In this document: positions 43,814 to 61,900 of the stretch, piece by piece | Numbering within the stretch: position 1 is the first letter of the stretch | Layout of the letters: each line of letters begins with the position of its first letter | Assembly: GCA_965116495.1 (NCBI GenBank) | Contig: OZ220696.1 | Span: forward strand, 1,312,001-1,376,000 | Reading direction: 5' to 3' | Origin: Gammaproteobacteria bacterium | GTDB lineage: Bacteria > Pseudomonadota > Gammaproteobacteria > Eutrophobiales > Eutrophobiaceae | Length of the DNA stretch: 64,000 bases | The notes under the pieces: generated by a model | Databases searched by the model: none | Seen by the model: only the letters and a program-made list of their open reading frames with translations | What the model was told of the DNA's origin: nothing | Program-made: the position numbers and the translations under genes

Positions 43814-43887
43814 TGGGGGCTCGTCTAACGGCAGGACTGCGGACTCTGACTCCGCCAGTAGAGGTTCGAATCCTCTGCCCCCAGCCA
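43814..43887 (+). tRNA. tRNA-Gln (anticodon CTG)
   Basis: Acceptor tgggggc/gccccca+gcca; anticodon stem gcgga-ctCTGac-tccgc; T-loop ggttcgaatcc. Confidence 0.96.
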
Positions 43888-44280
43888 TTTCAATTTGTTT
43901 CAAAATGTTTCATTTCCTTACCCCGGCGTGAAGATAGCACGAAACGGGCGCGTGGCAAAATCCTGGATACGGGGGAAAGATCAACTGATAAAATCCGTAC
44001 CAACGGCACAGCAGTTAATTCATCCGATCGTTATTCCCGTAAAATTTATCCGGCGGGATAGAAGCAGCCTGTCTTAATTCCTGCGTTATGAAACAAAGAT
44101 TGTCAAATGGGAAAAATCCGTCCTTCTCTTTTGGTTGAATTATCAAAATAATTTTCAAAACTTTCTACTAAATAGTTACCTGGTGTTTGAACAGTAGTCA
44201 TTCGTTGGTTTATCCGACTCATTTGCACGGCCCCCATCAACCCGGACAACCACATTTACAATGCCATGCATCTTCTATCA

Positions 44281-44338
44281 TATAGGCATTTATAGCAGAG
44301 AATTCCTATATAGGAATGTTCTGCTATAAATGCCTATA
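44281..44338. promoter_or_regulatory. 58-bp near-perfect palindrome, copy 1
   Basis: tataggcatttatagcaga-gaattcctatataggaatgt-tctgctataaatgcctata. Confidence 0.8.
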
Positions 44339-44476
44339 AACTGATGATGGTAGGGTGTACCCCGCCAGCCCCAGTGTTGATCCGGAGCCATTGTTGCGGC
44401 GGGTACGCATAAAACGTAAAGGTCTCGTTCACGGCGCTGGCCAAGCTGATGGTGGCTGTAGGTCACGACAAGTGAT

Positions 44477-44977
44477 TCAAATAAGCAGAAGTGATTCGAT
44501 GCGTTGAACGGGAAGCATCAGGGTCATAGGGTCAATATGCGACACCCGGAAACCGTATTCGAGGTAAAAACACCTGGCATCTTCTGAAATAGCGTGTACC
44601 AGCACCGCCCGAACGCCTGCATTCCGTGCGACAGCCAGTGTGCGTAACAAGGCATCTTTCAACAAGGCTGCGCCCAGGCCTTGGCCCTGCATTGCATGTT
44701 CAACGGCTAAACGACCCAATACCATCACGGGAACCGCTTCCGGCATGTTGCGGGCTATCGCCGCCGGAGCGCTGATTCGCTCGACACTCCCGCTGGCAAG
44801 CGCATAGAACCCGACCACCCGCTTACCCTCGCTGATAACAAACGTTCTGCTGGCGCCACTGTCCTGGTTTTTCAGCGCATGCTTTTTAAGCCACTCATTG
44901 AGTGCTTCATTACCACAGTCAAACTCGACCAGCAGATGACTGTCAGTCAGAGGCTCCGGGGCTTTGGCTACTCCCAC
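44477..44977 (-). CDS. GNAT acetyltransferase toxin (TacT/AtaT-like), copy 1
   Basis: FDCGNEALNEWL, VVGFYAL, PVMVLGRLAV..QGQGLG, VHAISEDARCFY. Confidence 0.92.
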   Translation of the reverse strand: MGVAKAPEPLTDSHLLVEFDCGNEALNEWLKKHALKNQDSGASRTFVISEGKRVVGFYALASGSVERISAPAAIARNMPEAVPVMVLGRLAVEHAMQGQGLGAALLKDALLRTLAVARNAGVRAVLVHAISEDARCFYLEYGFRVSHIDPMTLMLPVQRIESLLLI

Positions 44978-45231
44978 GGAGCGGGAGAAGTCAACAGGGA
45001 TTTCAGCTTCTCGTCAGCAGGCGCCGGCGCTTCCAGGGCTGCGGTAAAGGCAGCAAAAGCAGCAGCATCAAGTTGAAATAGACGTTGATTAAGCAATACG
45101 TTTTCTGCTTCCCGACAGGCAACGTCCAGGATAAACGCGCTTCTGTCCTTGTTAAGCATCGCAGCAGCCTTGGTCAAGAGCGCACGCTGACCAGGTTCAA
45201 CGCGCATGTTAATAGGGGCAGTCTTGGACAT
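44968..45231 (-). CDS. DUF1778 (TacA-like) RHH antitoxin, copy 1
   Basis: MSKTAPINMRV..RALLTKAA..RSAFILDVACREAENVL..SPAPWE. Confidence 0.9.
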   Translation of the reverse strand: MSKTAPINMRVEPGQRALLTKAAAMLNKDRSAFILDVACREAENVLLNQRLFQLDAAAFAAFTAALEAPAPADEKLKSLLTSPAPWE

Positions 45232-45485
45232 AATGATAAATCTCTTTGGATATCTTGATGCGATACATTTTAGTATAGCTATCAGATATACGCAAATGTT
45301 CCGTGATTTCTGACTGTCCACGCGGCGATGTACAATCTAATATCCTTCCTGGGTTCGGTCCTAATGGTCATGAACATTATATTGTTGAGAGACGCACGTT
45401 GGATCAACCAGTGCGGCGAGGATTGAGACTTATATCAAATTGTCCGGTCTACACGGTATGCCAGCAGCGGCTGTCACCAGTTTGA

Positions 45486-45653
45486 TTACAGTTCGGAATC
45501 GGCCAGCACATGCAAACATCCATCAACAGCTTCCTTTATATTGGCGGTCAGTTCAGCAATCGTATCCCCCTGTGTTACACAACCCGGGATAGACGGGACT
45601 TCCGCCCAGTAGCCGCCTTCCTCTGCAGCATGGATAATTATCGTTGTTTTCAT
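45486..45653 (-). CDS. Orphan short HicB-family antitoxin (55 aa); not in ORF track
   Basis: MKTTIIIHAAEEGGYWAEVPSIPGCVTQGDTIAELTANIKEAVDGCL. Confidence 0.8.
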   Translation of the reverse strand: MKTTIIIHAAEEGGYWAEVPSIPGCVTQGDTIAELTANIKEAVDGCLHVLADSEL

Positions 45654-45734
45654 AACACGAACACTGGTAAACCGTTAAAATTCAGAACATATAATGGTAC
45701 AGTAATTCAAGCATAAATTCCGCCAGGAACGCCT

Positions 45735-46457
45735 TTGGCCATGAGAACTAGTATCCGACAAGTACCCCAAGAACAATATAATGAAGATCGAATGCGGCGC
45801 GCCGAAAGTTGGTTGAGACGAAGCAAAGTAGCTGAGGTAAATCGTAAACAAGCCGTGTCCGACGAAGAAAGGGCTGCCCTCGATTGCGAGCAATTCATTT
45901 TTCTCTGGATCTCATTCAATGCGGCCTATGGTCGCGAACTGCTTGATAATAATAGAGGTGATGGCAGTCCCACAGAATCTGAAAAGTTTGACGAATTTTT
46001 GGAGAAAATCCTGGAACGGGATTCTGCTAAAGCCATCAAAACTATTCTGTGGAAAACGCACTCCGGTCCCATCCGCGTCCTTTTGAGAAACCATTATGTA
46101 TTCAATTTGTTCTGGCGTTCGATCAGGGATTCCAATAACGATTTACATTGGAGGAAAATGTTCAAGAGGTGGAATAAAAATGCCTTCTCAGCATTAGGCA
46201 GAGATGATATTCATGCAGTTCTCAGGGAAGTTTTCGATCGGCTTTGCGTACTCCGTAATCAACTGTTTCACGGTGGCGCCACATTTGCTACAGGTTGGGG
46301 TCGGTCTCAAGTCAGAGACGGCAGTCGCATTATGGCCAGTCTTGTCCCTGAAATTCTGAAGATTATGCAAACTGATATGGAAAAAAATCCTGATGCAGAC
46401 ACTTGGGGAGCAGTTGCTTTTCCGCGTATCAATGAAAGCCCCGACGCGGGGATATAG
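45735..46457 (+). CDS. HEPN-domain protein (putative RNase)
   Basis: FIFLWISFNAAYG helix and RxxxxH motif RNQLFH(GG). Confidence 0.78.
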   Translation: MAMRTSIRQVPQEQYNEDRMRRAESWLRRSKVAEVNRKQAVSDEERAALDCEQFIFLWISFNAAYGRELLDNNRGDGSPTESEKFDEFLEKILERDSAKAIKTILWKTHSGPIRVLLRNHYVFNLFWRSIRDSNNDLHWRKMFKRWNKNAFSALGRDDIHAVLREVFDRLCVLRNQLFHGGATFATGWGRSQVRDGSRIMASLVPEILKIMQTDMEKNPDADTWGAVAFPRINESPDAGI

Positions 46458-46636
46458 GCAAAAGGGGAGCAGACCAGGCGGCCTTCATGGCTGCCCGAGT
46501 GATTGTCAATTGGCATCCAAACTCACACTGCCCTTCGACTCTATCGGTATCATAAATCACAACTGCAGGTCCTCGCCACCAGGAAGTTCCCATCCGTCTT
46601 ATCGACAACAACTCCCGATGTGTTTTCAATATAGTT

Positions 46637-49048
46637 ATGTCATTATCTGAGGTATTGATAACAAATCGCCCGCTGAAGTTTGCGTTGCTGGCACTGGTGG
46701 CCCTGGGCATCCGGGCCGGGGCGGCGGAAACGACGGTTGATCCGGGTGTTGAGGAAATACGGGTTACCGCCACCAGTGAGGCGAGCGGTGAGGCGCCGGC
46801 AGACAGTATGGAAGCCGTGTTCGGGTTCGACAAGGGTTTACTGGAGACGCCTCGTTCGGCCACTGTCATCAGCGCCGAGACCCTGGAACAGTTCGGTGTA
46901 ACGAACCTGGACGATTTCGTCGTCCTCGCACCGGGCAGTTTCACCCAATCCTTCTTCGGCGCGGCCGGTACGCTGGATTTGCGCGGCACGTCCGGTGAAA
47001 CCTATTTCAACGGCGTGCGGCGGCTGGATAATGCGAGCAACTACGTTACCCCCGTTGGCGCTGCCGATCGGGTTGACATCGTGCGCGGGCCGGCCTCCGT
47101 AATCCATGGCCCAAGCAAAATCGGGGGCTATATGAACTTCATTCCCAAGTCGATCCGGGCGGATACCGCTCACTCCCGGAAGCGTCCCACGGGCGCGCTC
47201 TCCCTCACCGGCGGCAGTTGGAGTAAAGCCGCGCTCAGCGCCGAAGTCGGCGGCCCCGGGGCACTGGGTGAACGGGAATTCGGCTACTACCTCTATGGCG
47301 AAGTGGAGGACTCCGGCAGTCACTACCGGCACACCGGCGTGGAGAGCGTCATTTTACAGGGATCGGTTAACATGGACCTGGGTGCGTCCGCCAGCGTCAG
47401 TTTCGGTGGCATGTACCAGGATTATGAGAGCAACGAGGTGGGAGGCTGGAACCGGCTGACCCAGGCGCTGGTTGACGACGGCCTCTACCAGACCGGCCTG
47501 GCAAAGCCCCTGGACGGCGATGGCGACGGGTTCGTTTCCCACCAGGAGTTTGGTGCGGCCAACGGCGGCGACGGCGTGTTTGCATTCGTTGTTGACCCTG
47601 CCGGTGTAGCCGGTCCTGTTGATTTTGCGCCTGACTTTGCCCTGGACCCCTCGACAACAGGCGTGGCGCGGCTGGACTCTAACCAGGTCCTGGTTGATCC
47701 TGACGATACCCTGGAGTCCGACGTCCTGCTGCTTTACCTGGACCTGGTGATGGACCTGAATGACGCGTGGGACCTGACCAACAAGCTTTACTACGAGGGC
47801 TACGATAACCTCATTGAATCCAGCTATGGATTCGCCCGTTTCGCCGATTCCTGGGTCATTGAGAACCAGCTGATCCTGACGTACGCGGCCCGCTTGCGCG
47901 GGGTTGCGCTGCAAGCGCTGTTTTCGCCTTCTGTCCGTTACACGAACTTTGAGCACGCCTCGGATTTTACCAATGAGAACTTTCACCGGCGCGACCTGAC
48001 CCGCTCTAACTCCGCCCGTGACCGGCGCCTGCTGGCGACCCGCATTGACTATGATTACACTGACTACTTCCTGGGCCACTATGCCATCTATGGCCTGACC
48101 GCACTGGCCGATGTCAGCTTTGACAACGGGCTGAGCATCCTGCTCGGCGCGCGCCATGACCACATCGACCTGAACGGCAGGCAACCGGGGGGGAAAACAC
48201 TTAGCGGCGTTGACCTTGACGAGAGCGATACCGAATCGGTCTTTTCCTGGACGGCAAGCGTCTCCTACCGCAGCGCGCCAGGCATTGTTCCCTACGTTAC
48301 CGCATCGGAGCAAACAACCGTGGTGGCAGGGGCGGGCGCCGATATCGATCCGGCCAACATTGCCGCCGGCCAGGCGGTCTCGGGTTCCAGGTTGTTTGAG
48401 GTGGGCGTGAAGGGCTCGTTGCTTGATGAACGGCTGTTCACCCAGCTGGCCTGGTACCGGCAGAAGCGCACGGATTTCAGCGCCCAGTCTATCGTCACCA
48501 ACCAGGCATCGAAAACCGAGGGGTTTGAGTTTGAACTGCGCTGGCTTGCTTTGCCCAGCCTCACCCTCAGCGCGGCCTACACCAATATTAAAGTCATCAA
48601 TCTCAACACAGCCAACGCTGGCGGACGGTTCAGTTTCCTGGGTGCCGGTGACTTGCCGGATACGGACCCGGCCCGTTTCTACGGCGGCACAGTAGGCGGT
48701 TTTGTGACGCTTGCCAATAACCCGAAGGCGCGCCGCGCCGGCTTGCCGGAGAACGTCCTCAGCTTGAGCGCCAGCTACGATTTTCACGACGGGCTGCGCG
48801 TCTTCGGGAGTATTGTTGATGTTGACAGTGTCTATTCCGGCTTTTCCCGCGCCGTCAAGCTGCCGGCCTACACCCTGGTCAATGCCGGCATTGAGGCCCG
48901 CTTGGGCCGGTTCACGCTGGCGTTCAGCGCCAAAAACCTGAGTAATGAACGCTATTTCCGCGCCAATTTCCCGAATCTCTTCGGCAGCAGTATCGTTTTG
49001 CCGGAATTGCCCAGGCACTACCGGGCGAGCCTTCGATACCGGTTCTAG
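46637..49048 (+). CDS. TonB-dependent receptor (island cargo)
   Basis: Signal peptide, ETPRSATVIS, DIVRGPAS, KNLSNERYF, C-terminal YRF. Confidence 0.92.
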   Translation: MSLSEVLITNRPLKFALLALVALGIRAGAAETTVDPGVEEIRVTATSEASGEAPADSMEAVFGFDKGLLETPRSATVISAETLEQFGVTNLDDFVVLAPGSFTQSFFGAAGTLDLRGTSGETYFNGVRRLDNASNYVTPVGAADRVDIVRGPASVIHGPSKIGGYMNFIPKSIRADTAHSRKRPTGALSLTGGSWSKAALSAEVGGPGALGEREFGYYLYGEVEDSGSHYRHTGVESVILQGSVNMDLGASASVSFGGMYQDYESNEVGGWNRLTQALVDDGLYQTGLAKPLDGDGDGFVSHQEFGAANGGDGVFAFVVDPAGVAGPVDFAPDFALDPSTTGVARLDSNQVLVDPDDTLESDVLLLYLDLVMDLNDAWDLTNKLYYEGYDNLIESSYGFARFADSWVIENQLILTYAARLRGVALQALFSPSVRYTNFEHASDFTNENFHRRDLTRSNSARDRRLLATRIDYDYTDYFLGHYAIYGLTALADVSFDNGLSILLGARHDHIDLNGRQPGGKTLSGVDLDESDTESVFSWTASVSYRSAPGIVPYVTASEQTTVVAGAGADIDPANIAAGQAVSGSRLFEVGVKGSLLDERLFTQLAWYRQKRTDFSAQSIVTNQASKTEGFEFELRWLALPSLTLSAAYTNIKVINLNTANAGGRFSFLGAGDLPDTDPARFYGGTVGGFVTLANNPKARRAGLPENVLSLSASYDFHDGLRVFGSIVDVDSVYSGFSRAVKLPAYTLVNAGIEARLGRFTLAFSAKNLSNERYFRANFPNLFGSSIVLPELPRHYRASLRYRF

Positions 49049-49432
49049 CCGTATTTCTCCTGGCCGTTCGGACTAATTGCTGATTCCTGGCATAAAATCC
49101 ATAATTTGTGTCGTTGCTACAACCTTAATTCTGGGAATGCCTGTCACCGACTCATATCGGACTTGGAGCGTACCTCGTGATTACGCCGGCAATGGCCTGA
49201 GCAGTTGATGAAGCATGGCTAAACGGTTGAGCCTCATCCCGTAAATTCAAGACTTCCGGCTTGTGAGGTCAACCAGTGACCTAACGGTTTCTCTTTGTAC
49301 CAACCAGGTTCTATACAAGATAGTTTTTCCGTACATTGGATGAATTAACTGTTTGCAATATGTCAGATAATATAGCTATAATTTATAACACAATTAAAAA
49401 TGGATGACTGTTATAATTACGGTACTGATCAT

Positions 49433-50056
49433 ATGACATCAACGTTATCCGACAAGATTATGAAACGGATCCGCGGCCGTGGCCGCGGCAAGTGGGTCTG
49501 CACGCCCAAGGACTTCCTGGACCTGGGGTCACGGCCCGCCGTGGATCAGGCCCTGTCCAGGCTGGTAAAGCGGGGACACCTGCGCCGCGTCGGTCGAGGC
49601 CTGTATCACCTGCCACGGATGAGCAGGATATTGAAGCGGTACGGGCCACCTTCCCTGGATCAGGCTGTAGATGCCATCGCTCGCCGGGATGGCGTTCGCG
49701 TGATAACAACTGGCCTCGATGCGGCCAACCGGTTGGGATTAACCAATGCAGTGCAGGTCAGCCCCATGTACCTGACGGACGGTGCCAGCCGTAAGGTAAA
49801 GGTTGGAAATCGCACTATTGAGTTCAAACATGCGGGGATAAGGTTAATGCAGTGGCACGGCCGTCATGGCTGTTTGGTCGTCAACGCGCTACTGTGGCTT
49901 GGTCGCAGGATCGTAATGAATCCGGAGAACAAGATAGTTGTCTATCTGCGCGGGCAATTGCCCGATTACGTCAAACAAGATCTCATGGATGGTATTGCAC
50001 TTCTGCCGTCCTGGGCGGTTCCTGTTATCAAGCAACTGCAAGCGGATACGGCATGA
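49433..50056 (+). CDS. DUF6088 / AbiEi-type antitoxin regulator
   Basis: PKDFLDLGSRPAVDQALSRLVKRG..RVGRGLY, AANRLGLTNAV, YLTDGASR. Confidence 0.88.
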   Translation: MTSTLSDKIMKRIRGRGRGKWVCTPKDFLDLGSRPAVDQALSRLVKRGHLRRVGRGLYHLPRMSRILKRYGPPSLDQAVDAIARRDGVRVITTGLDAANRLGLTNAVQVSPMYLTDGASRKVKVGNRTIEFKHAGIRLMQWHGRHGCLVVNALLWLGRRIVMNPENKIVVYLRGQLPDYVKQDLMDGIALLPSWAVPVIKQLQADTA

Positions 50057-50159
50057 GCATCAATCCACACTTTAAGATCTTTCTTGGTTTGTCTGAAGCC
50101 GAACGCCGAATAGCGTGTGAGTCTGCTGCAGACATGTTGAATACATCAGACAAATATAT
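50053..50159 (+). pseudogene. Truncated AbiEii-type nucleotidyltransferase toxin
   Basis: ATGA-coupled to DUF6088; MSINPHFKIFLGLSEAERRIACESAADMLNTSDKYI is cut by the MITE about where the EKD motif is expected. Confidence 0.7.
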
Positions 50160-50277
50160 TGCGGATTCCGGTTCAAAGTGAACACTGATTCCGGTTGAAC
50201 GTGAACACTTTTCGGGTATTTCCGGAATCGGTGTTCACATGCCCGGAATCCGCGTTCACGTTGAACCGGAATCCGCA
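50160..50277. mobile_element. IS21-family-like MITE (118 bp)
   Basis: TG...CA ends, 24-bp IRs tgcggattccggttcaaMgtgaac, internal repeated gattccgg..gtgaac sites; no target duplication. Confidence 0.8.
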
Positions 50278-50331
50278 TCTCGTTCACGGCGCTGGCCAAG
50301 CTGATGGTGGCTGTAGGTCACGACAAGTGAT

Positions 50332-50832
50332 TCAAATAAGCAGAAGTGATTCGATGCGTTGAACGGGAAGCATCAGGGTCATAGGGTCAATATGCGACAC
50401 CCGGAAACCGTATTCGAGGTAAAAACACCTGGCATCTTCTGAAATAGCGTGTACCAGCACCGCCCGAACGCCTGCATTCCGTGCGACAGCCAGTGTGCGT
50501 AACAAGGCATCTTTCAACAAGGCTGCGCCCAGGCCTTGGCCCTGCATTGCATGTTCAACGGCTAAACGACCCAATACCATCACGGGAACCGCTTCCGGCA
50601 TGTTGCGGGCTATCGCCGCCGGAGCGCTGATTCGCTCGACACTCCCGCTGGCAAGCGCATAGAACCCGACCACCCGCTTACCCTCGCTGATAACAAACGT
50701 TCTGCTGGCGCCACTGTCCTGGTTTTTCAGCGCATGCTTTTTAAGCCACTCATTGAGTGCTTCATTACCACAGTCAAACTCGACCAGCAGATGACTGTCA
50801 GTCAGAGGCTCCGGGGCTTTGGCTACTCCCAC
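50332..50832 (-). CDS. GNAT acetyltransferase toxin, copy 2
   Basis: Protein identical to copy 1. Confidence 0.92.
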   Translation of the reverse strand: MGVAKAPEPLTDSHLLVEFDCGNEALNEWLKKHALKNQDSGASRTFVISEGKRVVGFYALASGSVERISAPAAIARNMPEAVPVMVLGRLAVEHAMQGQGLGAALLKDALLRTLAVARNAGVRAVLVHAISEDARCFYLEYGFRVSHIDPMTLMLPVQRIESLLLI

Positions 50833-51086
50833 GGAGCGGGAGAAGTCAACAGGGATTTCAGCTTCTCGTCAGCAGGCGCCGGCGCTTCCAGGGCTGCGGT
50901 AAAGGCAGCAAAAGCAGCAGCATCAAGTTGAAATAGACGTTGATTAAGCAATACGTTTTCTGCTTCCCGACAGGCAACGTCCAGGATAAACGCGCTTCTG
51001 TCCTTGTTAAGCATCGCAGCAGCCTTGGTCAACAGCGCACGCTGACCAGGTTCAACGCGCATGTTAATAGGGGCAGTTTTGGACAT
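50823..51086 (-). CDS. DUF1778 antitoxin, copy 2
   Basis: Protein identical to copy 1. Confidence 0.9.
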   Translation of the reverse strand: MSKTAPINMRVEPGQRALLTKAAAMLNKDRSAFILDVACREAENVLLNQRLFQLDAAAFAAFTAALEAPAPADEKLKSLLTSPAPWE

Positions 51087-51331
51087 AATGATAAATCTCT
51101 TTGGATATCTTGATGCGATACATTTTAGTATAGCTATCAGATATACGCAAATGTTCCGTGATTTCTGACTATCCACGCGGCGATGTACAATCTTATTGAC
51201 CCCCTTAGCGGGACTTCAGAGAAGAAAACCGTATTCCGGTTTTGCATTCCGAATGACAAGGTTCATTTTTTCAGTTATTTTGTCAGTTAAAAGCATGCCT
51301 TGATTTGCTTTCACTTGAAGTGATTTAAAAC

Positions 51332-51556
51332 ATGAATATGAAAATGAAAAATGAGTACACGATTCTCATCGAGAAAGATGAGGATGGTTACTATGTCGGC
51401 AGCATCCCCGCGTTGCCGGGATGTCACTCCCAGGCCAGGTCGGTTGACCAGCTAATGGAGAGGATGGAAGAGGCCATCGCACTGTGGCTTGAGGTCGAGC
51501 AGGAAATTGACCCCAGCCCGCTGGAATGGGTAGGGATACAAAGACTGGCAGTATGA
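51332..51556 (+). CDS. hicB: HicB-family antitoxin
   Basis: YTILIEKDEDGYYVGSIPALPGCHSQARSVDQLMERMEEAIALWLE. Confidence 0.88.
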   Translation: MNMKMKNEYTILIEKDEDGYYVGSIPALPGCHSQARSVDQLMERMEEAIALWLEVEQEIDPSPLEWVGIQRLAV

Positions 51557-51786
51557 GTAAAATGCCCCGTCTCACGGGCGATCAAGTGATCCAGGCTTTG
51601 CGCAAGGAAGGATTTAATATAGCGAGACGCAAAAGCAGCCATGTTATGCTGAAACACCCGGACGGACGGGGTACTGTGGTACCCGTGCATTCCGGTGAAA
51701 CCATTGGTGCGGGGCTCATGTCAAAAATCCAAAAGGATATTGGTGCAGACCGGGAATACTTTATTCGGATACTAACGGTCAGATAA
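51553..51786 (+). CDS. hicA: HicA-family mRNase toxin
   Basis: MPRLTGDQVIQALRKEGF..RKSSHVMLKHPDGRGTVVPVH; ATGA-coupled. Confidence 0.88.
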   Translation: MSKMPRLTGDQVIQALRKEGFNIARRKSSHVMLKHPDGRGTVVPVHSGETIGAGLMSKIQKDIGADREYFIRILTVR

Positions 51787-51901
51787 CCTGTTGACGGCAG
51801 TCCAATTTTATAAGCCATTCGTCCGGCTAACACCGCGAGTACCCACTTGAACCGCCCCGCGAATCCCGGAGACCCGTTAGTTTGAGCGATTCAGTTTTTT
51901 A

Positions 51902-53029
51902 TCAGAGTTTGTCCTTAATTTGCGTCCTTACCCACATTGAGAATTCAGGATCTTCGATAATCCAGCCACCCGACCATCGATCAACGACGCCTGAACCTGT
52001 GAGCCGTCTCAGTGCCGATTGTACTTTGTCAATCGATGGCGGTTCCGCACCCAGTGATTTCCCGATTTCATCGCGTGTTGCTTTGGAAAATGGTTTGTCA
52101 GCTCCCTGTGCAAGTTGGATTACTGTGGCGCGCTGAATGTTTGTCAGCTTTAACCATAGTTCGGTATATCCTAATTTTTCCGCCATCTGCTCATGCAAAA
52201 GAACAAGACCTTCGTCAATCGCCAGGTCAACCCGTAAAGTCAACAATTCAATCAATGCACGGAAAAAATAGGGACTTTTATGCAGCTCGTCGAATGCTTT
52301 TAACGCCTCGTCACGACCTAATTTTTGTTTAGTTGCTCTTTCGAAGGCGTTGAGTTGGTGATCGACAAAACGTTCGTCTAGCGGTTCCAAGTCCAGAGAG
52401 GTTCCGAAATGAAAGAACGGCGCTTCGGCTTCACTGAACATCGCCTTTAATCCTTCACGCGACGAACCGGTAAAAACTGACTTCAATCCAGTGTCCCTTG
52501 TGTCCAGGCTGGTTCGAAGAGAAGCGATAAGGGACCGGTTGTTCTTATCTTTGGCAAGTTCCTGTACCTCGTCAAACAGAAGCAAGGTTGGCTTTTTCCT
52601 GTTTTCCAAACGAGCGAGAAGGTTGTCAAGATACAGGATGAGTTCCGCGGGTGGTTCGCCTTTCAGAGAAGAAAGATCAATTTCTGCTTCCGCCCTGGCC
52701 CCGCCAATCGGCGCTGAGAGTTTCAGCTTTGGTTTCAAGATGGATGTCACACTACCGATGCGTCCCGCTATAGTTTTTGATTTCAGCGCATCCTCAAGGC
52801 TGTACAGGATGAGCGCAAGCGGCGAGAGCGGAGCACGCCAAAAGCTTATATAGACTACCTTGTGCCCCTTGCTTTCCGCATATGGAGTCAAATCCTTGGT
52901 CAGGAATTCGGTTTTCCCGGTACGCCGGGGGGCAAATAAGGTCAGTGCCTTGGCCGGCCCCTCAACAAGTGCGTTACGTGTCCGGGCAGCAAGGTTCTCA
53001 CGGGGGTAATGCCACGTATCATCTTTCAT
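51902..53029 (-). CDS. AAA+/STAND-like ATPase with probable C-terminal winged helix
   Basis: Walker A APRRTGKT, Walker B LLFDEVQ, FTGSS, VQSALRRL..GVV..W.IEDPEF. Confidence 0.8.
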   Translation of the reverse strand: MKDDTWHYPRENLAARTRNALVEGPAKALTLFAPRRTGKTEFLTKDLTPYAESKGHKVVYISFWRAPLSPLALILYSLEDALKSKTIAGRIGSVTSILKPKLKLSAPIGGARAEAEIDLSSLKGEPPAELILYLDNLLARLENRKKPTLLLFDEVQELAKDKNNRSLIASLRTSLDTRDTGLKSVFTGSSREGLKAMFSEAEAPFFHFGTSLDLEPLDERFVDHQLNAFERATKQKLGRDEALKAFDELHKSPYFFRALIELLTLRVDLAIDEGLVLLHEQMAEKLGYTELWLKLTNIQRATVIQLAQGADKPFSKATRDEIGKSLGAEPPSIDKVQSALRRLTGSGVVDRWSGGWIIEDPEFSMWVRTQIKDKL

Positions 53030-53086
53030 ATAGGCATTTATAGCACAGAATTCCTATATAGGAAAGTTCTGCTATAAATGCCTATA
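53029..53086. promoter_or_regulatory. 58-bp near-perfect palindrome, copy 2, abutting the ATPase start codon
   Basis: tataggcatttatagcacagaattcctatataggaaagttctgctataaatgcctata. Confidence 0.8.
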
Positions 53087-53153
53087 AACTGATGATGGTG
53101 GGGGTAATATAAAAATTTCTAAACAGAAGATGGATCAGGTTACGGAGAGGGGG

Positions 53154-53492
53154 TCAGCAGGAATAAATTTCAAGGCAGCTGCTTTCGTGTTCATCATGGA
53201 AGTCACGTATCCTGTCCTGATTATTGATGAGGAGACCAAGCACATACCACTTGGGCCTGTTACCACATTTGAGCCAGATTACTTTGGGCGGTTCGCCATG
53301 TAACAGACTGAGTTCGTGGAAATCCGAGTCCATGGTAACAATCGTATAACCGTTATCCCTGGCAAAACGCCAGATAGTCATATCATCTGCCTGCTCGAGT
53401 CCAAGTAATCTGACTCGCGTTGAACCGTGGTAGACGGACTTGATCTTGTCCAGCAACCGGCACGACAGGTTCTGCTCCAAGAGCAGATTCAA
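53154..53492 (-). CDS. DUF5615 PIN-like toxin (VapC45 type)
   Basis: LLLEQNLS, ADDMTIWRFARDNGYTIVTMDSDF, GEPPKVIWL. Confidence 0.85.
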   Translation of the reverse strand: MNLLLEQNLSCRLLDKIKSVYHGSTRVRLLGLEQADDMTIWRFARDNGYTIVTMDSDFHELSLLHGEPPKVIWLKCGNRPKWYVLGLLINNQDRIRDFHDEHESSCLEIYSC

Positions 53493-53512
53493 GTCGGCGC
53501 TATCGTAGATAA

Positions 53513-53716
53513 CTAGTGCTCGCGGTCGGCGGCAAAGGCAAGACAGGCCCTGATATCATCCCGGGTCAGTTCCGGATAATCGTCCAGAATTTCGGCTTCG
53601 CTCATGCCCGATGCCAACCAATCCAGCACATCATAGACGGTGATCCGCATGGAGCGGATACACGGTTTGCCACCACGCTTACCTGGTTCGATGGTAATGT
53701 AATCTTGATAGTTCAT
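53513..53716 (-). CDS. DUF433 antitoxin
   Basis: ITIEPGKRGGKPCIRSMRITVYDVLDWLASGMSEAEILDDYPELTRDDIRACLAFAA. Confidence 0.9.
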   Translation of the reverse strand: MNYQDYITIEPGKRGGKPCIRSMRITVYDVLDWLASGMSEAEILDDYPELTRDDIRACLAFAADREH

Positions 53717-53932
53717 TATCTGTTCCACCACGTTGGCCAACAGCATGAACCTTATTCAGGATTCCTTACAAGCAATACACAAAATTTGCTTTGTCCCATT
53801 GTATACGGCGCCCGAAAAGGCGCGTGACTGCCAAATCCGTTGTGACAATATGTAACATTCAAAGTCACAACAAAATCACAAATATCGTAATTGACTAACT
53901 ATTTCAGCGACTTACATACTAGGTGCGGATTC

Positions 53933-53976
53933 CTCTGACTCCGCCAGTAGAGGTTCGACTCCTCTGCCCCCAGCCA
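53933..53976 (+). repeat. attR: displaced 3' half of tRNA-Gln
   Basis: ctctgactccgccagtagaggttcgactcctctgcccccagcca. Confidence 0.92.
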
Positions 53977-53989
53977 GTTTGATACCCGG

Positions 53990-54617: not shown

Positions 54618-54854
54618 ATGGCAACAACCGAAGAACGTGTAAGACAACTCGTCAGCGATAACCTGGAAGTGGACGGACAACCCCTGGACCTGTCAGAGGA
54701 TCTGAATACCGGGCTCACCGAGCTTGGCGTATCCTCGCTGGATATCGTTGCCTTCGCGAAACTGGTTTCAAAGGAATTCAATATTGCCTTTACCATCGAA
54801 GATTGCGAGACGGTCAACACCATCAGGAAACTGATCGATCACATCGGCGGCTAA
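54618..54854 (+). CDS. Stand-alone acyl carrier protein (SupB-like)
   Basis: 78 aa acidic protein, LTELGVSSLDIVAF; RBS gggag; directly upstream of hydrolase and PKS. Confidence 0.8.
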   Translation: MATTEERVRQLVSDNLEVDGQPLDLSEDLNTGLTELGVSSLDIVAFAKLVSKEFNIAFTIEDCETVNTIRKLIDHIGG

Positions 54855-54988
54855 GCCGGCAGAGTGCCTTCCGGCACTGCGCTGTTGCTGCCGGACAGGC
54901 TGGGAAGATTATTCAGGGGGGAACCGTATAATTCACCGGTTTTCAGCCATATAATGCGGCATTGCCGCTACTCTCACTTATAAACTGA

Positions 54989-55936
54989 ATGACTATGGCT
55001 TCAGAAAACCTGTGGGAGATACCTGAACCCGTTTCAGTTTGTGAAGTTCGTCCGGACGACGACACTGTTATTACCCTGCGGCGACACGGTAATCCGGCAG
55101 GCCCGAGACTGATTCTGAGTCACGGCAACGGTCTCGCAATTGACCTGTATTTTCCCTTCTGGTCGTTGCTCATGGACGATTTCGACCTGATAATCCATGA
55201 CCTGAGAAACCACGGCTGGAATAAAGTCGGGGCCATCACCAGGCATAACGTGCCAACTCTGGTGCGCGACCATAACTGCATTCTCGCGGCAATTGACGAG
55301 ACCTACGGGAAAAAACCGAAAATCGGCGTATATCATTCCGTCTCCTCCCTGGTAACGCTTATGTCGACTTCAATATTGGCGGATCCCGGCAACTCGTCCC
55401 CGGAGAGCGCCTGCGCGGCGCTGGTCCTGTTCGACCCGCCCCTGTGCAAGCCCGGCGTCAGCCAGGCGAAATTTGACGAAGCCACCGAAAAGACCGCGGC
55501 AATGACCCGGCGACGCTCCAGGCGGTTCGAGTCAAGAGAACAGTTTACGGAACTCCTCGAATTTCTGCCGGCATTCAAAAACGTCGTTCCCGGCGTGCGC
55601 GAATTGATGGCGCTCACAACGTTGCAGGACGCCGCCGACGGGGAAGGTTATGAACTTTGCTGCCCGCCCGAGTACGAGGCCCGGATTATAGATTACACCA
55701 GGATTTTCTCTCCACTGATGGACTTTGACGATCTTCACTACCCGACAAAAGCCATCTGCGCGGACCCCACCCTGCCTTACTCTTACCTGCCTACCATAGA
55801 CCTGAGTGATATCCTGAGCGTAGACTATGATTTTCTGCCGGATACGACGCACCTGATGCAACTGGAACAGCCGGAGGAATGTGTCGCGACAATGCGTGAA
55901 TTCATTGAGCAGGATGTGCTCGCTGGGATTCAATAA
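54989..55936 (+). CDS. Alpha/beta hydrolase (SupD-like)
   Basis: LSHGNG, HDLRNHG, elbow GVYHSVS, LFDPP, TTHLMQLEQP. Confidence 0.82.
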   Translation: MTMASENLWEIPEPVSVCEVRPDDDTVITLRRHGNPAGPRLILSHGNGLAIDLYFPFWSLLMDDFDLIIHDLRNHGWNKVGAITRHNVPTLVRDHNCILAAIDETYGKKPKIGVYHSVSSLVTLMSTSILADPGNSSPESACAALVLFDPPLCKPGVSQAKFDEATEKTAAMTRRRSRRFESREQFTELLEFLPAFKNVVPGVRELMALTTLQDAADGEGYELCCPPEYEARIIDYTRIFSPLMDFDDLHYPTKAICADPTLPYSYLPTIDLSDILSVDYDFLPDTTHLMQLEQPEECVATMREFIEQDVLAGIQ

Positions 55937-55943
55937 GTAAGTC

Positions 55944-58900
55944 ATGTCTGAAGTCGAACAACCTATCGCAATAGTGGGTATGGCGTGCCGCTTTCCCGGC
56001 GCCCCGGATATACCCTCCTTCTGGCGACTCCTTGAAGGCGGCAAAAACGCGGTAATCGAGGGTGAGCCGGGATCCGGCAAAGGACGCGTAGGACAATTGT
56101 TCCCGGATGCGGCAGTCCAGAGCGAGGCCTGCCGGTTCGGCGCCTACCTGGACGAGATCGATTTGTTTGACGCGGCGTTCTTCCATATTTCGCCGGTCGA
56201 GGCACAATTTCTTGATCCGCAGCAACGGCTGATGCTGGAGACAAGCTGGCGCGCGCTGGAGGATGCAGGCATGGACCCGGACCGGTTGAAGGGCAGCCGC
56301 ACCGGCGTGTACGCCGGAATAAGCAACAACGAATACCGGTCGATGATCCTGGACGCAAACAGGACTGCCGAACCCGCATCGAGCCTGTACACGGTGACCG
56401 GCACCTCGTTCAATACGGCTATCGGCAGGGTCGCCTACGCGCTGGGACTGGAGGGACCGGCGCTGGCGCTGGACACCGCCTGTTCGTCGTCACTGGTCGC
56501 CATTCACCAGGCCGTTTCCGGACTGCAGCGCGGCGAAGCGGACCTGGCGCTTGCCGGCGGTGTGCATACGATCCTGTCCGGGAGGCTGCTGGAACTGCGC
56601 GGCAATGCCGGCATGCTGGCGCCCGACGGCAGGTGCAAGACCTTCGATGCCGCCGCCAACGGTTATGTGCGCGGCGAAGGCTGCGGCATCGTGGCGCTCA
56701 AACGGCTGGATGACGCGGAAGCGGACGGCGACCGCATCTGGGCGATTATCCGGGGTTCCGCCATCAACCAGGATGGGGCCAGCCCGGGGCTGACGGTGCC
56801 GAGCGGGCCGGCGCAGGAGCGGGTCATCGAGGCGGCTTTGCAGACGGCCCGGGTGCCTCCCGAACAGGTTGACTACGTGGAATGCCACGGCACCGGCACG
56901 CCGGTGGGCGACCCGATCGAGGCGCAGGCCGTCGGGACGGCTTACGGCAATGGACGCAGCGCAGATAACCCGTTGCTGATCGGATCGGTGAAGACGAATT
57001 TCGGCCACCTGGAATCGGCGGCCGGGGTTGCCGCAGTGATTAAGGTCATCCTGGCGATGCAGCACGGCTTGATCCCGCGCCACCTGAATTTCCGCAATCC
57101 CAGTCCGGCGATCGACTGGGAAAGCCTGCCGTTAAGAGTGACGTCGGAACCGACGCCCTGGCCGGTCCGTGCGGACCGTAAGGCGCTGGCAGGCATAAGC
57201 GGGTTCGGCTGGTCGGGCACCAACGCACACCTCATCGTAGAAAATTACAGGACTCTGGATGCCGGCCCGGCCGGTCCTGACGAAAGCCGCTGGGCCATGG
57301 GGTCGGCGCAGCGGATTGACGCCACCCTGCCGGAACCTGTTGCCGGGGGATCAGACACCCCGGAAGGCATCACCACGCGCAGGATTCGTTTTCTACCGCT
57401 GTCGGGCAGGTCGGACAAGGCGCTGCGGGAACTGGCGCGGGACCACCTGGAATGGCTCGGCAGGCGCGCCGGGATATCTTCCTCCCGGGACACCGATGAA
57501 GCACTGCTGTCAGACCTGGCCTGGACGGCCGGGGTGGGCCGCAGCCATTTCAGTCACCGGGCAGGCGTGGTGTTTCAAGATCTCCCGTCGTTGCGGGAAA
57601 ACCTTGCCGCGCTTGCTGAAACGGGCGCGGGAGCAGGTCCTGAGCCGGGACGGCAGACGGGCAAACTGGTTTTTGCTTTCACCGGGCAGGCCAGCCAGTG
57701 GCCCGGCATGGGCGCAACACTGTATGAGCAGGAACCGGCGGCGCGGGCGGTGCTGGACCGTTGTGACGGCATCCTGCAGGATGCGCGGGGCGCTTCCCTG
57801 CTGGACATCATGTTCGGCCGCAACGGCGCGGAACAGGAACTCGACAACCCGGCATGGACCCAGCCGGCTATCTATGCGCTGGAATGCGCCCTGAGCACAG
57901 TGTGGTCGAACCTGGGCATCCGGCCCGATGTGATAGTCGGCCACAGTCTCGGCGAGATCGCCGCGGCGCAGGCAGCCGGCGTGTTCGACCTGGAGCAGGG
58001 CTTGCTGTTCGCGGCGCAACGAGGAGCGCTGATGGGGGCGTTGCCAGGCGAAGGCGCCATGGCCGCGGTGTTCGCGCCGGCGCCCCGAGTGGCGACTATG
58101 GTGGAAGAATACACCTCGACTGCGCCCGGTGCCGTTGTGAACATTGCCGCGGATAACGGCGCGCACCAGGCCATAAGCGGTTCCAGGACTGACGTCGAGG
58201 CCGTGCTTGAACGTTTTGAAGCTGAGGGGATCCGGGTCGCGCGGCTGCGCGCCAGTCCCGCGTACCACAGCGCACTGGTGGACCCCGCGCTGGACGACCT
58301 GGAGGCGGCGTGTGCCGGAATGACGTTCGAAGTTCCGAAAGTCCCCCTGGTAAGCAGCATGACCGGCCGGCCGCTTGAGCCCGGCGCAACCTTCGACGGC
58401 GCATACTGGCGCCGGCAGGCGCGTGAACCGGTCGCGTTCCGCGCTGCCGTCGAGACGCTCGCACACCTGGGTGTGGGGGCACTGATTGAAATCGGCCCCA
58501 ATGCAGTACTCGGTCCGATGGCCGAACTGGCCTGGCCGGGGCCTGACTCCGGCACTAACAAGGCCGGGGACGGCGCCCTCCCCTCACCCCTGGCTATAAC
58601 GAGCCTGTTACGCCCTTCATCCAAAGTATCCCGTACGGAGTCCGACCAGGCTTTTACCGCCGCCGTAGCAAAAGCATACGAGGCTGGCCTGCCGGTGTCG
58701 CTGGCTGGGCTTTTCGCCGGAGAGGCACGGCGCCGCATCTCGGTACCGGGTTACCCGTTCCAGCGCGAACGCTTCTGGATCGAGGCTTTGAGGCGGCGGC
58801 AGCGGGACACAGGACACCCGTTGCTGGGAGAACGGCACGAATCGGCAAGCGGCGAGATCTCGTTTGAGACCGAGTTGTTCCCGTCGGATCCGGCCTGGCT

Positions 58901-61900
58901 GAACGACCACCGGGTGTTCGAACGGCTGGTGGCGCCGGGTGCGCTGTACGGGGCGATGGCCGTAACGGCTGCGCCAGAAAGTAGCGGAACCCTGGTTGTC
59001 GAAGACATGCAGTTTCATAATCCGATGATCTTTCCGGAACAGGATAGCGGTGATGAGGACGGTGAACAGGGACGCAAGGTACAGGTCCTGCTGAACCGGT
59101 CCGGGGAAGGAACAACGCACAGGGTCCAGGTACTCAGCAAGGGGGGAGACAGGGAGGAATGGACCCTGCACGCGGAGGGCAGTATCCCATCCGCTGCACA
59201 GGACAGGCAACGCACCGGGAAGGCGGACCTTGAAGGCCTGAAAAAGGGGCTCTCCCCGGTTGACGTGCCTGCCTTTTACCAGGCCAAGGCGGGAGTCGGG
59301 ATCGATCTCGGCCCGTCATTCCGCACGCTGGAGAATGTCTGGTCGCGGCAGGGTGAGGCATTGGGCGAAGTAGCGTTGCCCGGGAACCTGGAGCAGTCCG
59401 GTCCGGACGTACATCCGCTCCTGCTCGACGGCTGCTTCCAGGTACTGGCGGCAGCGCGTAATCCGGGCAGCGCCGATGACGGCATTACCTACCTGCCATT
59501 CGGGTGGGAACGGTTATGGCTGGCGCAGCAGTTACCCGAGCGCGTATTCTGCCATGTACGCACGAAGGATAATCCTGCCGGCGCAAACGACGAGCCCCGG
59601 GAAACCCTGGGCGGAGACCTGCATATCTATGCCCCGGACGGACTCCTGCTCGGTGAATTTAACGGCTATACGGTTAAACGGGCAACGCGGGCCGCGCTGC
59701 TTGCGGCAGTGGAAGGATTGAACGAACTCCTGTACGAGATTACCTGGCGCGACCGCGCCCTCGCTCCCGGCATATTGCCCGCCGATTTCCTGCCCGAACC
59801 CGCCACCGTTGCGGCAGGCTCCGGACCGTTCACGCACTACCTGGAGGCAGAAAGCGTCGGCGCCGAAGACCGGGTAGCCCTGCTGGCGGACCTGGAGGTG
59901 CTGGCGCGCGGTTTCGCCCTTGCTACCCTGGATAAGCTGGGCTGGCAGCGCATTGCCGGCGCGCGCGTGGAACCGGAAGCCTTGCGCCGGCAGCTGCAGG
60001 TCCGGGAAGAACACCGCAAACTGTTCCGGCGTATGCTCGAGTTGCTGGCCGGCGCGGGAGTTTTGCGCGCTGACGGAGACGGGTTCAGCGTCGCAGTCGG
60101 GTCGGGAGCGCCGTTACCGGCTGACCTGCCGGGTGATCCCGACGAGTTCGCCGCCGGTATGGCTGGGCGCTACGCGCACGGCGTTAACGAGACCGGGCTG
60201 TTCCGGCGCAGCGGCGGCGCCCTGGCGAACGTACTGCTGGGACGTGAAGACCCGCTGACCCTGCTGTTCAGCAGCGGCGAGCCGACCGCCGCCGACCTGT
60301 ACCTGAAGGCGCCGGTAGCGCGCGCCGCGAACCGGATGCTCGGGGATACGATCACAGCGCTACTGGGGGGAATGCCCGACGGGCGCCGCCTGCGGGTGCT
60401 GGAAGTCGGGGCGGGCACGGGCTCGGCGACGGCATCCGTGCTGCCGGAACTGCCGTCCGGAAGGTTCGACTACACCTATACGGATATCTCCGCGGGCTTT
60501 TTCTCGGAGGCTGAAGGCCGTTTCGGGGGACCCGAGGCGGGGATCGATTACCGCGTGCTGGATGTCGAAAAAGATCCCCTGGCGCAGGGCTTTGATGCGC
60601 ACGGTTATGACCTGGTGATCGCCTCCAATGTGCTGCACGCCACGCGCTACCTGAACGAGACCCTGGCCCACTGCCTGGACGTGCTCGCCCCGTCCGGTTA
60701 CCTGGTGGCGCTGGAAAACCTGCGCGGCCAGGGCTGGCTGGACCTGACCTTCGGGCAACTGGATGGCTGGTGGCGTTTTGCCGACGACTACCGGCCGCAC
60801 CATGCCCTGGCAAGCCCTGAAGTCTGGCGCCAGGCGCTGGGAGATGCCGGTTTTACCGCAACGGAGATCCTGGGCGTTGACACCTCCGCGGCGGCCGGCA
60901 AGCCGGACCGGGGCGTGATCGTCGCGCAAGGACCGCCCCGGGTAACCGAGACACGTGGTTTATGGGTCCTGGCCGGGGACCACGGGGGAACAGTCAATGA
61001 GTTGGCTGCCGGATTGTCGGCCCGCAACCAGGCCGTCATGCTGGCGGCGGCTGATGAACAACCCGGCGCCAAGCCGGGACAGGAACAGGCCGGTGTTATT
61101 CCGGTTTCCCTGGATATGACGGCGCGCGGGGCGTGGCAGGCGCTGTTCCGGGAGTTGCCGCAGGACGTGCCGCTCAACGGCATCATCCACCTGGCCGCGC
61201 TGGACGGTCGCGGCGCGCAGGCGTCTACCGGGGAGATGGCGGCTGACGTACGGCGCGCGACGGAAAGCGCATTGGCGCTGGTACAGGGCTGCACGGATGC
61301 CGACGTGACGCCGGCCAACGGCCTGTGGTTCGTTACCAGGGGCGGGCAGGTGCTGGAGAAGGAACGTTCAGGGGAACTCGCCGGCGCCACGCTGTGGGGT
61401 TTCGGCAAGGTCGTGGCCCGGGAGGCCGCCCACCTGCAGCCGCGCATGATCGACCTCGACCCCGATACGGCTGCGCTGCCGGCCGGACTGACAGAGGAAC
61501 TGCTCTACCCTGATGCAGAGACCCATATCGCCTACCGCAGGGGGGTGCGCCAGGCGGCACGGCTGGTGCGCTCCGGTAGCGGTGTGGAACGCCTGTCCCT
61601 GCCGGCAGGGCCGGACTGGATTCTTGAGCCGGACCCGGCCGGTGCGCTGGAACGGCTGGACACCAGGCCGACGGCGCGGCAGGCGCTGGAACCGCTGGAA
61701 GTGCGCGTCGCTATCGAGGCCACCGGACTCAACTTCTGGGACGTGTTCCGTTCCATCGGCTTTATCCCGGAAGGACTGCTGGGCGGAGAAATGTGCGGCC
61801 ATGTCATCGAGGCGGGTTCCGGGGTAACGAATGTCGCGATCGGCGACCGGGTGGCCGGACTCGGGTTCGGCACCTTCGCACCGGAAGTCGTCACGCGGGC

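Follow-up and report, generated by a model that had tools for sequence, protein, structure and literature searches.

What does a long palindrome do when it runs into the start codon of an uncharacterized ATPase gene, and why does it occur twice in one genomic island? In the window analysed here, the whole 64,000-nucleotide stretch of a gammaproteobacterial genome, the initial annotation had described a near-perfect palindrome whose terminal base is the A of an ATG, the absence of a Shine-Dalgarno sequence and a second copy with two differences and a shared tail. It had proposed either a multi-site operator of a leaderless, autoregulated gene or a recombination or hairpin site. The sequence features were as described. 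At 53029-53086, 25 of 29 positions are paired around a loop-less centre, compared with 27 of 29 at 44281-44338. On the minus strand, the last base of the palindrome is the A of the ATG that opens a 375-aa ORF (51902-53029, MKDDTWH...), and a search of the 16 nt 5' of this ATG for AGGA/GGAG/GAGG-type motifs found none. Of the 58 positions, 2 distinguish the copies, and both copies lie within a 96-nt repeat, 44260-44355 and 53008-53103, that is 93% identical and includes the shared tail. The features concerned are as follows.

51902 to 53029, minus strand: 375-aa ATPase, with a P-loop domain, a helical domain and, at the C terminus, a winged helix
53029 to 53086, no strand: six-box array (the 58-bp palindrome), predicted operator, with boxes in the order > > < > < < in gene orientation
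53080-85, 53070-75, 53058-63, 53052-57, 53040-45 and 53030-35: the boxes in gene orientation, 6 bp each
44260 to 44355, minus strand: relic copy, comprising a full array (44281-44338), the tail on its upstream side and the ATPase gene as far as nt 22
44237 to 44281, minus strand: 14-codon ORF read from the relic, beginning MIEDAWH

The palindrome is not a product of chance, since DNA folding gave z = -7.5 and -9.7 for the two copies and none of 200 shuffles of either folded as well. Long palindromes are frequent across this genome (93 rows, many overlapping), and the 58-bp sequence itself has only two copies in 4.34 Mb. The best Rfam match was a sub-threshold microRNA hairpin on the relic (33 bits against a gathering threshold of 100). 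With two copies in 4.34 Mb and no Rfam match above gathering, a REP-like dispersed repeat or a known structured RNA was ruled out. The genome also harbours several families of dispersed, perfect palindromes of 40-65 bp with shared outer arms and variable centres (for example, at C1:392396, 2023839, 3031966, 3607587 and 1834661), which are unrelated to the array. Short-read contigs from two runs covered the second copy fully and the first copy to 53072 with 0 differences. These contigs argue against an assembly error, and their support is not independent because the assembly may have been built from the same runs.

The array lies over a predicted promoter, in the following register.

53037 to 53065, minus strand: predicted sigma-70 promoter within the array, with 8 of 12 consensus matches plus TG
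53060-65 and 53037-42: -35 element TTTCCT and TG-extended -10 element TATAAA, separated by a 17-nt spacer
53051 to 53078, plus strand: mirror-image promoter-like site, a by-product of the symmetry

Because the -10 ends 7 nt 5' of the ATG, transcription in the clade of the window gene is predicted to start at the ATG itself, giving a leaderless transcript. The -10 of the window lacks the conserved final T, and a stricter promoter scan does not report this promoter. A paralogue carries a near-consensus TTGACT-17-TAATAT in the same register, and the promoter at another locus (L089) reads TTGATA-17-TATAGT. Among 16 lineages, defined as below 60% identity and with a six-box score of 28 or more (see below), the array ends no more than 2 nt from the ATG in 8. 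The leaderless-type register is the best promoter in four; in four, a ribosome-site motif is present and the array lies further upstream. Leaderless starts are thus predicted to be a trait of only part of the family (4 of 16 lineages).

Within the palindrome, the six boxes share the consensus ATAG(G/C)(A/C), with an outer step of 10 bp and an inner period to the centre of 18 bp. Of 22 further genomes of the genus, 12 carry the array, and all five intact orthologues in the genus (73-97% protein identity) have it in register. In these five, 36, 35, 36, 34 and 33 of the 36 box positions are identical and 14-21 of the 21 non-box positions are unchanged, with corresponding values of 0.88-0.45 for third codon positions and 0.20-0.40 for the next 40 nt upstream. 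In a paralogue with 49-51% identity, found in six genomes, the layout is unchanged and the box reads TTAGCC. Plasmid and chromosomal homologues at 25-40% identity keep the geometry with changed letters, the boxes of distant homologues including TTAGAC, TTATGC, TTACGC, ATATCA and TTGTCG, among others. Most homologues retain the boxes without a continuous hairpin. In two Rhodanobacter plasmids (L096 and L130), the array alternates two box types when read by eye, and our score undercounts such arrays.

The initial annotation had suggested looking for the palindrome upstream of homologues, and homologues do carry the element. We scored this by geometry; a score for repeated words against shuffles was discarded as noisy in AT-rich DNA. 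Controls were 1,030 upstream regions of the host genome. A four-box score of at least 22 of 24 at the 10-bp step was found for 13 of 37 non-redundant homologue upstream regions and 1 of 1,030 controls, and at steps of 6-9 and 11-15 bp for 0-1 of 37. As the four-box pattern had been set after loci were inspected, 14 unseen loci (12 plasmid homologues with 25-33% identity and two closer chromosomal ones) were scored as a hold-out. A score of at least 21 was reached by 5 of these 14, compared with 9 of 1,030 controls and 2 of 107 neighbouring genes. For the six-box score, 14 near-duplicates were dropped from a set of 62 loci, leaving 48. In total, 22 of the 48 and none of the 1,030 controls scored at least 28 of 36, with a model shaped after loci had been viewed and windows of 113 nt for the family versus 103 nt for the controls. 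The remaining 26 loci scored below 28, and only 3 of the 14 hold-out loci reached that value. Other steps yielded 1-5 of 48 loci; periods of 18 and 19 bp yielded 7 and 14 loci, and other periods 0-3. All counts omit L050, L051, L057 and L075-L077, which are weak or partial matches and probably another subfamily, as well as a 37-bp match in G003 and the unscored G283.

Which protein reads these boxes? The boxes track the clade of the protein and not the host, the host genome holds no other array, and one residue of the protein covaries with the box; together, these point to the product of the array's own gene as the probable binder. A six-box scan of the host genome found only the two copies at 36 of 36, with the next best site at 26 of 36, indicating that there is no regulon. 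One genome (G018) holds both an orthologue array and a paralogue array, each before its own gene. The relevant parts of the protein are these.

51956 to 52141, minus strand: predicted winged helix, approximately residues 297-358, with the codon of Q337 at 52019-52021
52910 to 52933, minus strand: Walker A, residues 33-40
residues 153-154 and 187-190: Walker B DE and TGSS motifs of the ATPase

In protein-DNA recognition generally, Gln reads A and Arg reads G. Residue 337, in the predicted recognition helix, ranked first of 375 columns for the third base of the box, in a ranking in which seven columns tie on the first criterion. Of 12 lineages whose boxes have A at this base, 11 have Q at residue 337, and of three with G, two have R; one Q lineage has mixed G/A boxes and one has C. 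The two R lineages, L098 and L099, fall on different branches of a quick tree (47 rows, this family only). In a covariation analysis with 12-residue sliding windows, windows of the helix came 4th, 7th and 13th out of 91; the three best-ranked windows belong to the helical domain. An advance prediction of R337 for L122 failed: the residue is K, at a locus whose boxes were read by eye and left unresolved by the automatic model. Residue 337 thus appears to track the third box base modestly. Binding by some other host regulator, or a role as promoter elements only, would fit the overlap of boxes with the -35 and -10 hexamers and a box in L098 that reads like a -35. Such a regulator is difficult to reconcile with box letters that vary from clade to clade, with the differing orthologue and paralogue arrays that coexist in G018 and with the lack of any other array in the host genome, unlike a host regulon. 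We regard this explanation as highly improbable.

We then considered what kind of protein the ATPase is. In Pfam, AAA_14 scored above the cut-off and ATPase_2 just below it. PADLOC returned only mad8/TRIP13 at noise level (E 0.001-0.005), no NCBIfam or PHROG family matched, and a sequence search of the PDB returned only SSO1545 (E 0.14). The predicted model (pLDDT 85) has an NTPase-helical-winged-helix layout in which three domains account for all 375 aa. Its nearest structures are PAB2304 (Z 22.2, rmsd 4.1, 321 residues aligned) and SSO1545 (Z 21.0, rmsd 3.9, 310 aligned), followed by Orc1/Cdc6 (Z 15.8-17.4) and the cores of NLRs and apoptosomes (Z 13-15.5). Catalytic residues are conserved among the best 150 rows: G38 and K39 in 140 (with 10 gaps), D153 in 147, E154 in 142, G188 in 145 and S189 in 144. 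The ATPase has the P-loop NTPase domain with Walker A, Walker B DE and polar sensor strand that characterize the minimal STAND/archaeal ATPase (ATPase_2) group, and the predicted model and its full-length structural matches place a helical domain and then a winged helix after the NTPase domain. The signature motifs of minimal STAND proteins are an N-terminal hhGRE and a helical GxP. At these positions the ATPase reads WHYPRE and HKSP, with P253 kept in 135 of 150 and the glycines not kept. On this model, the best reading is a stand-alone, minimal STAND/Orc-like ATPase with a fold nearest to PAB2304 and SSO1545.

PAB2304 (PDB 2qen) and SSO1545 (PDB 2fna), which we take to belong to the MNS clade of STAND NTPases, share the NTPase, helical and winged-helix layout over their full length, at an rmsd of about 4 Å over 310-321 residues. 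They differ from the window ATPase in sequence (16% identity), and the latter is bacterial, found on islands and plasmids and has the Walker A PRRxGK(T/S). Our literature search found no DNA site described for either protein. The family comprises 372 clusters at E below 1e-30. Among the best 150 profile hits, the longest protein has 395 aa, 132 have 340-400 aa and the Walker motifs are intact. The ATPase matched 267 of 72,556 plasmid records, along with 17 of 399 further genomes from the class and 2 of 400 others in a phylum sample; the viral contigs and phage records searched contained no match. A distant homologue (27%) occurs in L123 and 132 other Ralstonia megaplasmid records, where it appears fixed; the spread elsewhere is patchy.

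The similarity of the fold to Orc1/Cdc6 raises the question of whether the array is a replication origin, with its boxes as iterons and the protein as an initiator, as at haloarchaeal origins adjacent to orc/cdc6. The frequent occurrence on plasmids would suit an origin, and inverted repeats beside the gene together with links to mobile elements match the haloarchaeal pattern, as far as it is set out in the accessible text of PMC3528665. That likeness is one of layout only. Promoter-like hexamers lie under the array, which reaches the ATG; its boxes abut at the centre and no separate AT-rich unwinding stretch is present. It lies approximately 1.57 Mb from the GC-skew minimum, no neighbour was annotated as a replication initiator in 30 plasmid stretches (5 of them without annotation), and the fold is nearer to PAB2304 and SSO1545 than to Orc1/Cdc6. 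An origin is, in our judgement, a most improbable function for the array.

To place the two palindromes in their context, we examined the island that holds them. Both copies are located in a 10-kb island bounded by tRNA-Gln and a duplicate of its 3' part.

43814 to 43887, plus strand: tRNA-Gln(CTG), left island boundary
49144 to 49227, plus strand: short remnant that matches a fragment, presumably integrase-like, beside a relic in G019
51332 to 51786, plus strand: HicB/HicA pair, downstream of the ATPase gene and convergent with it
53154 to 53746, minus strand: DUF433/DUF5615 pair, upstream of the ATPase gene on the same strand
53933 to 53979, plus strand: right island boundary, a 47-nt copy (96%) of the tRNA 3' part

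The island is rich in toxin-antitoxin modules, with TacA/GNAT twice, HicB/HicA, DUF433/DUF5615 and an AbiEi-like gene. We found no intact integrase in it, only the remnant. The TacA/GNAT block of 919 nt is a direct duplication (44423-45341 and 50278-51196, 99.6% identity). A 118-nt self-complementary element with 35-nt arms (50160-50277, 91%) interrupts an ORF after the AbiEi-like gene (49400-50056); a similar sequence is located at C1:2220771-2220931, and the matching region in G019 extends further. A 240-aa ORF (45735-46457) had no Pfam, PADLOC, NCBIfam or PHROG match and contains an RNxxFH-like motif that is reminiscent of HEPN nucleases. The middle of the island encodes an 803-aa TonB-dependent receptor (46637-49048) with higher GC. 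To its right, beyond the boundary, 54618-64000 contains an acyl carrier gene, an alpha/beta hydrolase gene and a long GC-rich polyketide synthase region, and is similar to the sup cluster known from sponge symbionts. Contig joints of runs X1 and X2 within 43901-53896 skip 5-10 kb of the island, one of them linking 43970 to 52935, which suggests co-occurring strains with other forms of the island.

The second palindrome is a deletion relic of the start of the ATPase gene, because similarity to the gene stops at +22. The 14-codon MIEDAWH ORF that had been likened to the ATPase start is indeed present after this copy, but only about 7 of its 14 codons are homologous, the similarity ending 22 nt past the A. 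Across the genus, 10 genomes contain 11 such relics, and these have 9 distinct junctions. Seven of the junctions fall between +10 and +95 of the gene, no further than Walker A, and two lie within the array. Three relics are internal deletions joined at short shared sequences, one retains the 3' end only and none keeps Walker A. Breakpoints crowd between -26 and +95 of the ATG (clustering p 3e-8 under a crude uniform model that ignores serial deletion and kinship). Either a hairpin that promotes nearby deletion or selection against longer, unrepressed fragments could account for this clustering. The -10 is changed in 3 of 7 relic lineages with a full array, compared with 1 of 5 intact orthologues. 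The window relic is more palindromic than the intact copy (27/29 versus 25/29), as template switching would produce, according to the available portions of PMC3820800 and PMC8604942. Elsewhere in the genome, a third relic (L116, C1:1005243-1005351) consists of the last 17 ATPase codons and 3' flank only. Just past the ATPase stop, a short sequence (51848-51880) also occurs at C1:1005243, 2061716 and 2273974 and looks like an IS3-family end.

These relics bear on the other function that had been proposed, a site of recombination, a hairpin or an element end by which the gene is moved or rearranged. The palindrome could form a stable DNA hairpin, homology between loci stops within about 20 bp of its outer edge, breakpoints crowd beside it and the gene is found at several different sites within one genus. 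Against this, 34 high-scoring loci scanned 3' of the gene had no matching array, most homologues keep boxes and not a continuous hairpin, and the two window copies are not the flanking ends of one unit. Moreover, breakpoints differ from relic to relic, and the three internal deletions join at short shared sequences, as in ordinary deletion. A transposon end or att site was rejected given the lack of a matching far-end site at those 34 loci, the lack of a cognate recombinase and an integrase present only as a remnant. The mobility proposal thus found no support, the second copy being a relic, and we consider such a site very unlikely. As a side effect, deletions close by may nevertheless be favoured by the hairpin.

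The neighbourhoods of homologues range from housekeeping to defence-type genes. A scan of 59 neighbour proteins (54 of 92 listed, picked mainly where the record named no product, and 5 from genus loci) revealed no conserved partner gene. Some homologues adjoin SIR2, HEPN-nucleotidyltransferase, deaminase, an N6-methylase fragment or HipA, and some adjoin type I restriction, methylase or Abi genes. At four paralogue loci (L146:7719-8673, L147:7571-8299, L045 and L053), a start or remnant of a type I methylase gene and/or a YgjP/SprT-like peptidase gene follows directly, hinting that the paralogue once headed a restriction operon. On the two Rhodanobacter plasmids mentioned above, traT lies on one side of the homologue and a MobH relaxase gene on the other, with the homologue 55-65 nt upstream of the annotated mobH.

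Could the ATPase be a one-gene defence or addiction factor, its costly activity curbed through autorepression until phage or foreign DNA releases it? Such a role is compatible with an operator. It would suit a location in an island rich in toxin-antitoxin genes, the defence-type neighbours of some homologues, the 267 plasmid records versus 0 phage records and the placement of all seven distinct coding breakpoints of the relics at or before Walker A. However, the protein has no sensor or effector domain, and the best 150 hits leave no room beyond 395 aa; there is no PADLOC, NCBIfam or PHROG family above noise, neighbours are not conserved and many chromosomal homologues sit between housekeeping genes. 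We hold a defence or addiction role to be possible, if on the unlikely side. Antiviral STAND proteins of the Avs or NLR-like kind share a related NTPase fold (Z 13-15.5) and an island location and were rejected as a class for this protein, which has neither C-terminal repeat sensor nor effector domain; the best 150 hits are at most 395 aa long.

Two known systems come closer in their logic. C proteins are small helix-turn-helix proteins without an ATPase. Their genes have upstream palindromic operators and are often leaderless, as stated in the accessible part of PMC2632904. The likeness to C boxes described there lies in clade-specific palindromic boxes of fixed geometry a short way upstream of the regulator's own gene on mobile DNA; C boxes form 35-bp double operators, placed 17-18 nt before the start codon, whereas the window array spans 56-58 bp and touches the ATG. 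A C-protein switch was ruled out, as the product is a 375-aa ATPase and no downstream gene is conserved where a restriction gene would be expected. The second system is Orc1-2 of Sulfolobus, a non-initiator Orc1 that regulates transcription and binds a hexamer in its own promoter, according to the available text of PMC9738581. Both pair an ATPase and a winged helix with the protein's own promoter, binding being predicted in the present case. Orc1-2 has, in that text, a regulon and single asymmetric hexamers, whereas here we found six phased boxes, no other genomic target and a fold nearer to PAB2304. By analogy, the ATPase-array unit may work like a C-protein switch or like Orc1-2 on its own promoter, while being neither.

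Orc and STAND conflict systems are discussed in PMC10853773, PMC8195603 and 10.64898/2026.01.04.697583. The accessible parts of these three sources do not show this ATPase family or its operator, and the clade tables of the last may include the family. In the literature searched, subscription papers aside, we found no account of a six-box operator. Operators through which a gene on mobile DNA regulates itself are familiar. To our knowledge, there is no earlier description of the sensor-less STAND/Orc-like carrier, of a six-box geometry whose letters change or of the relic pattern.

Collectively, we think it likely that the array over the predicted promoter is an operator bound by the ATPase's own predicted winged helix and that the protein thereby represses its own gene; the second copy is a relic. 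The earlier proposal of a multi-site operator for a probably autoregulated and leaderless ATPase gene thus gains support from the element upstream of homologues, the C-terminal winged helix of the model and the predicted -10 that ends 7 nt before the ATG. In the mechanism that we propose, one protomer would occupy each box, and boxes 10 bp apart, or one helical turn, would set protomers side by side through contacts between ATPase domains. The inverted boxes would impose two-fold symmetry, and the array would fill cooperatively until it covered the -35, the -10 and +1. Nucleotide state would gate this assembly. Expression would be capped once the gene enters a new host, and the gene and its array would travel as passive cargo of islands and plasmids. 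Control may also be by activation or be mixed, as in C proteins.

A bolder version, which we consider rather improbable, is that the window gene belongs to a large family of one-gene, nucleotide-gated DNA switches that polymerize in helical phase on their own arrays, have a readable helix-to-base code and spread on islands and plasmids as self-contained defence or addiction units, with an ATPase that is costly when unrepressed. If true, this cost would explain why every relic has lost the P-loop and kept the operator.

The array would be a first predicted DNA target for an unstudied ATPase family. In structure, minimal ATPase-winged-helix proteins of the PAB2304/SSO1545 type fall between initiators of replication and the STAND proteins of immunity, and the annotation of these bacterial members does not go beyond hypothetical or ATP-binding protein. 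A predicted cognate site with fixed geometry opens this family to tests of binding, nucleotide dependence, oligomer geometry and single-residue specificity, and natural variants with different boxes would provide a collection of orthogonal ATP-dependent repressors. Should the gene turn out to be protective or addictive, it would represent a STAND-like system without sensor or effector; if it regulates only itself, it would be a clean case of selfish regulatory cargo.
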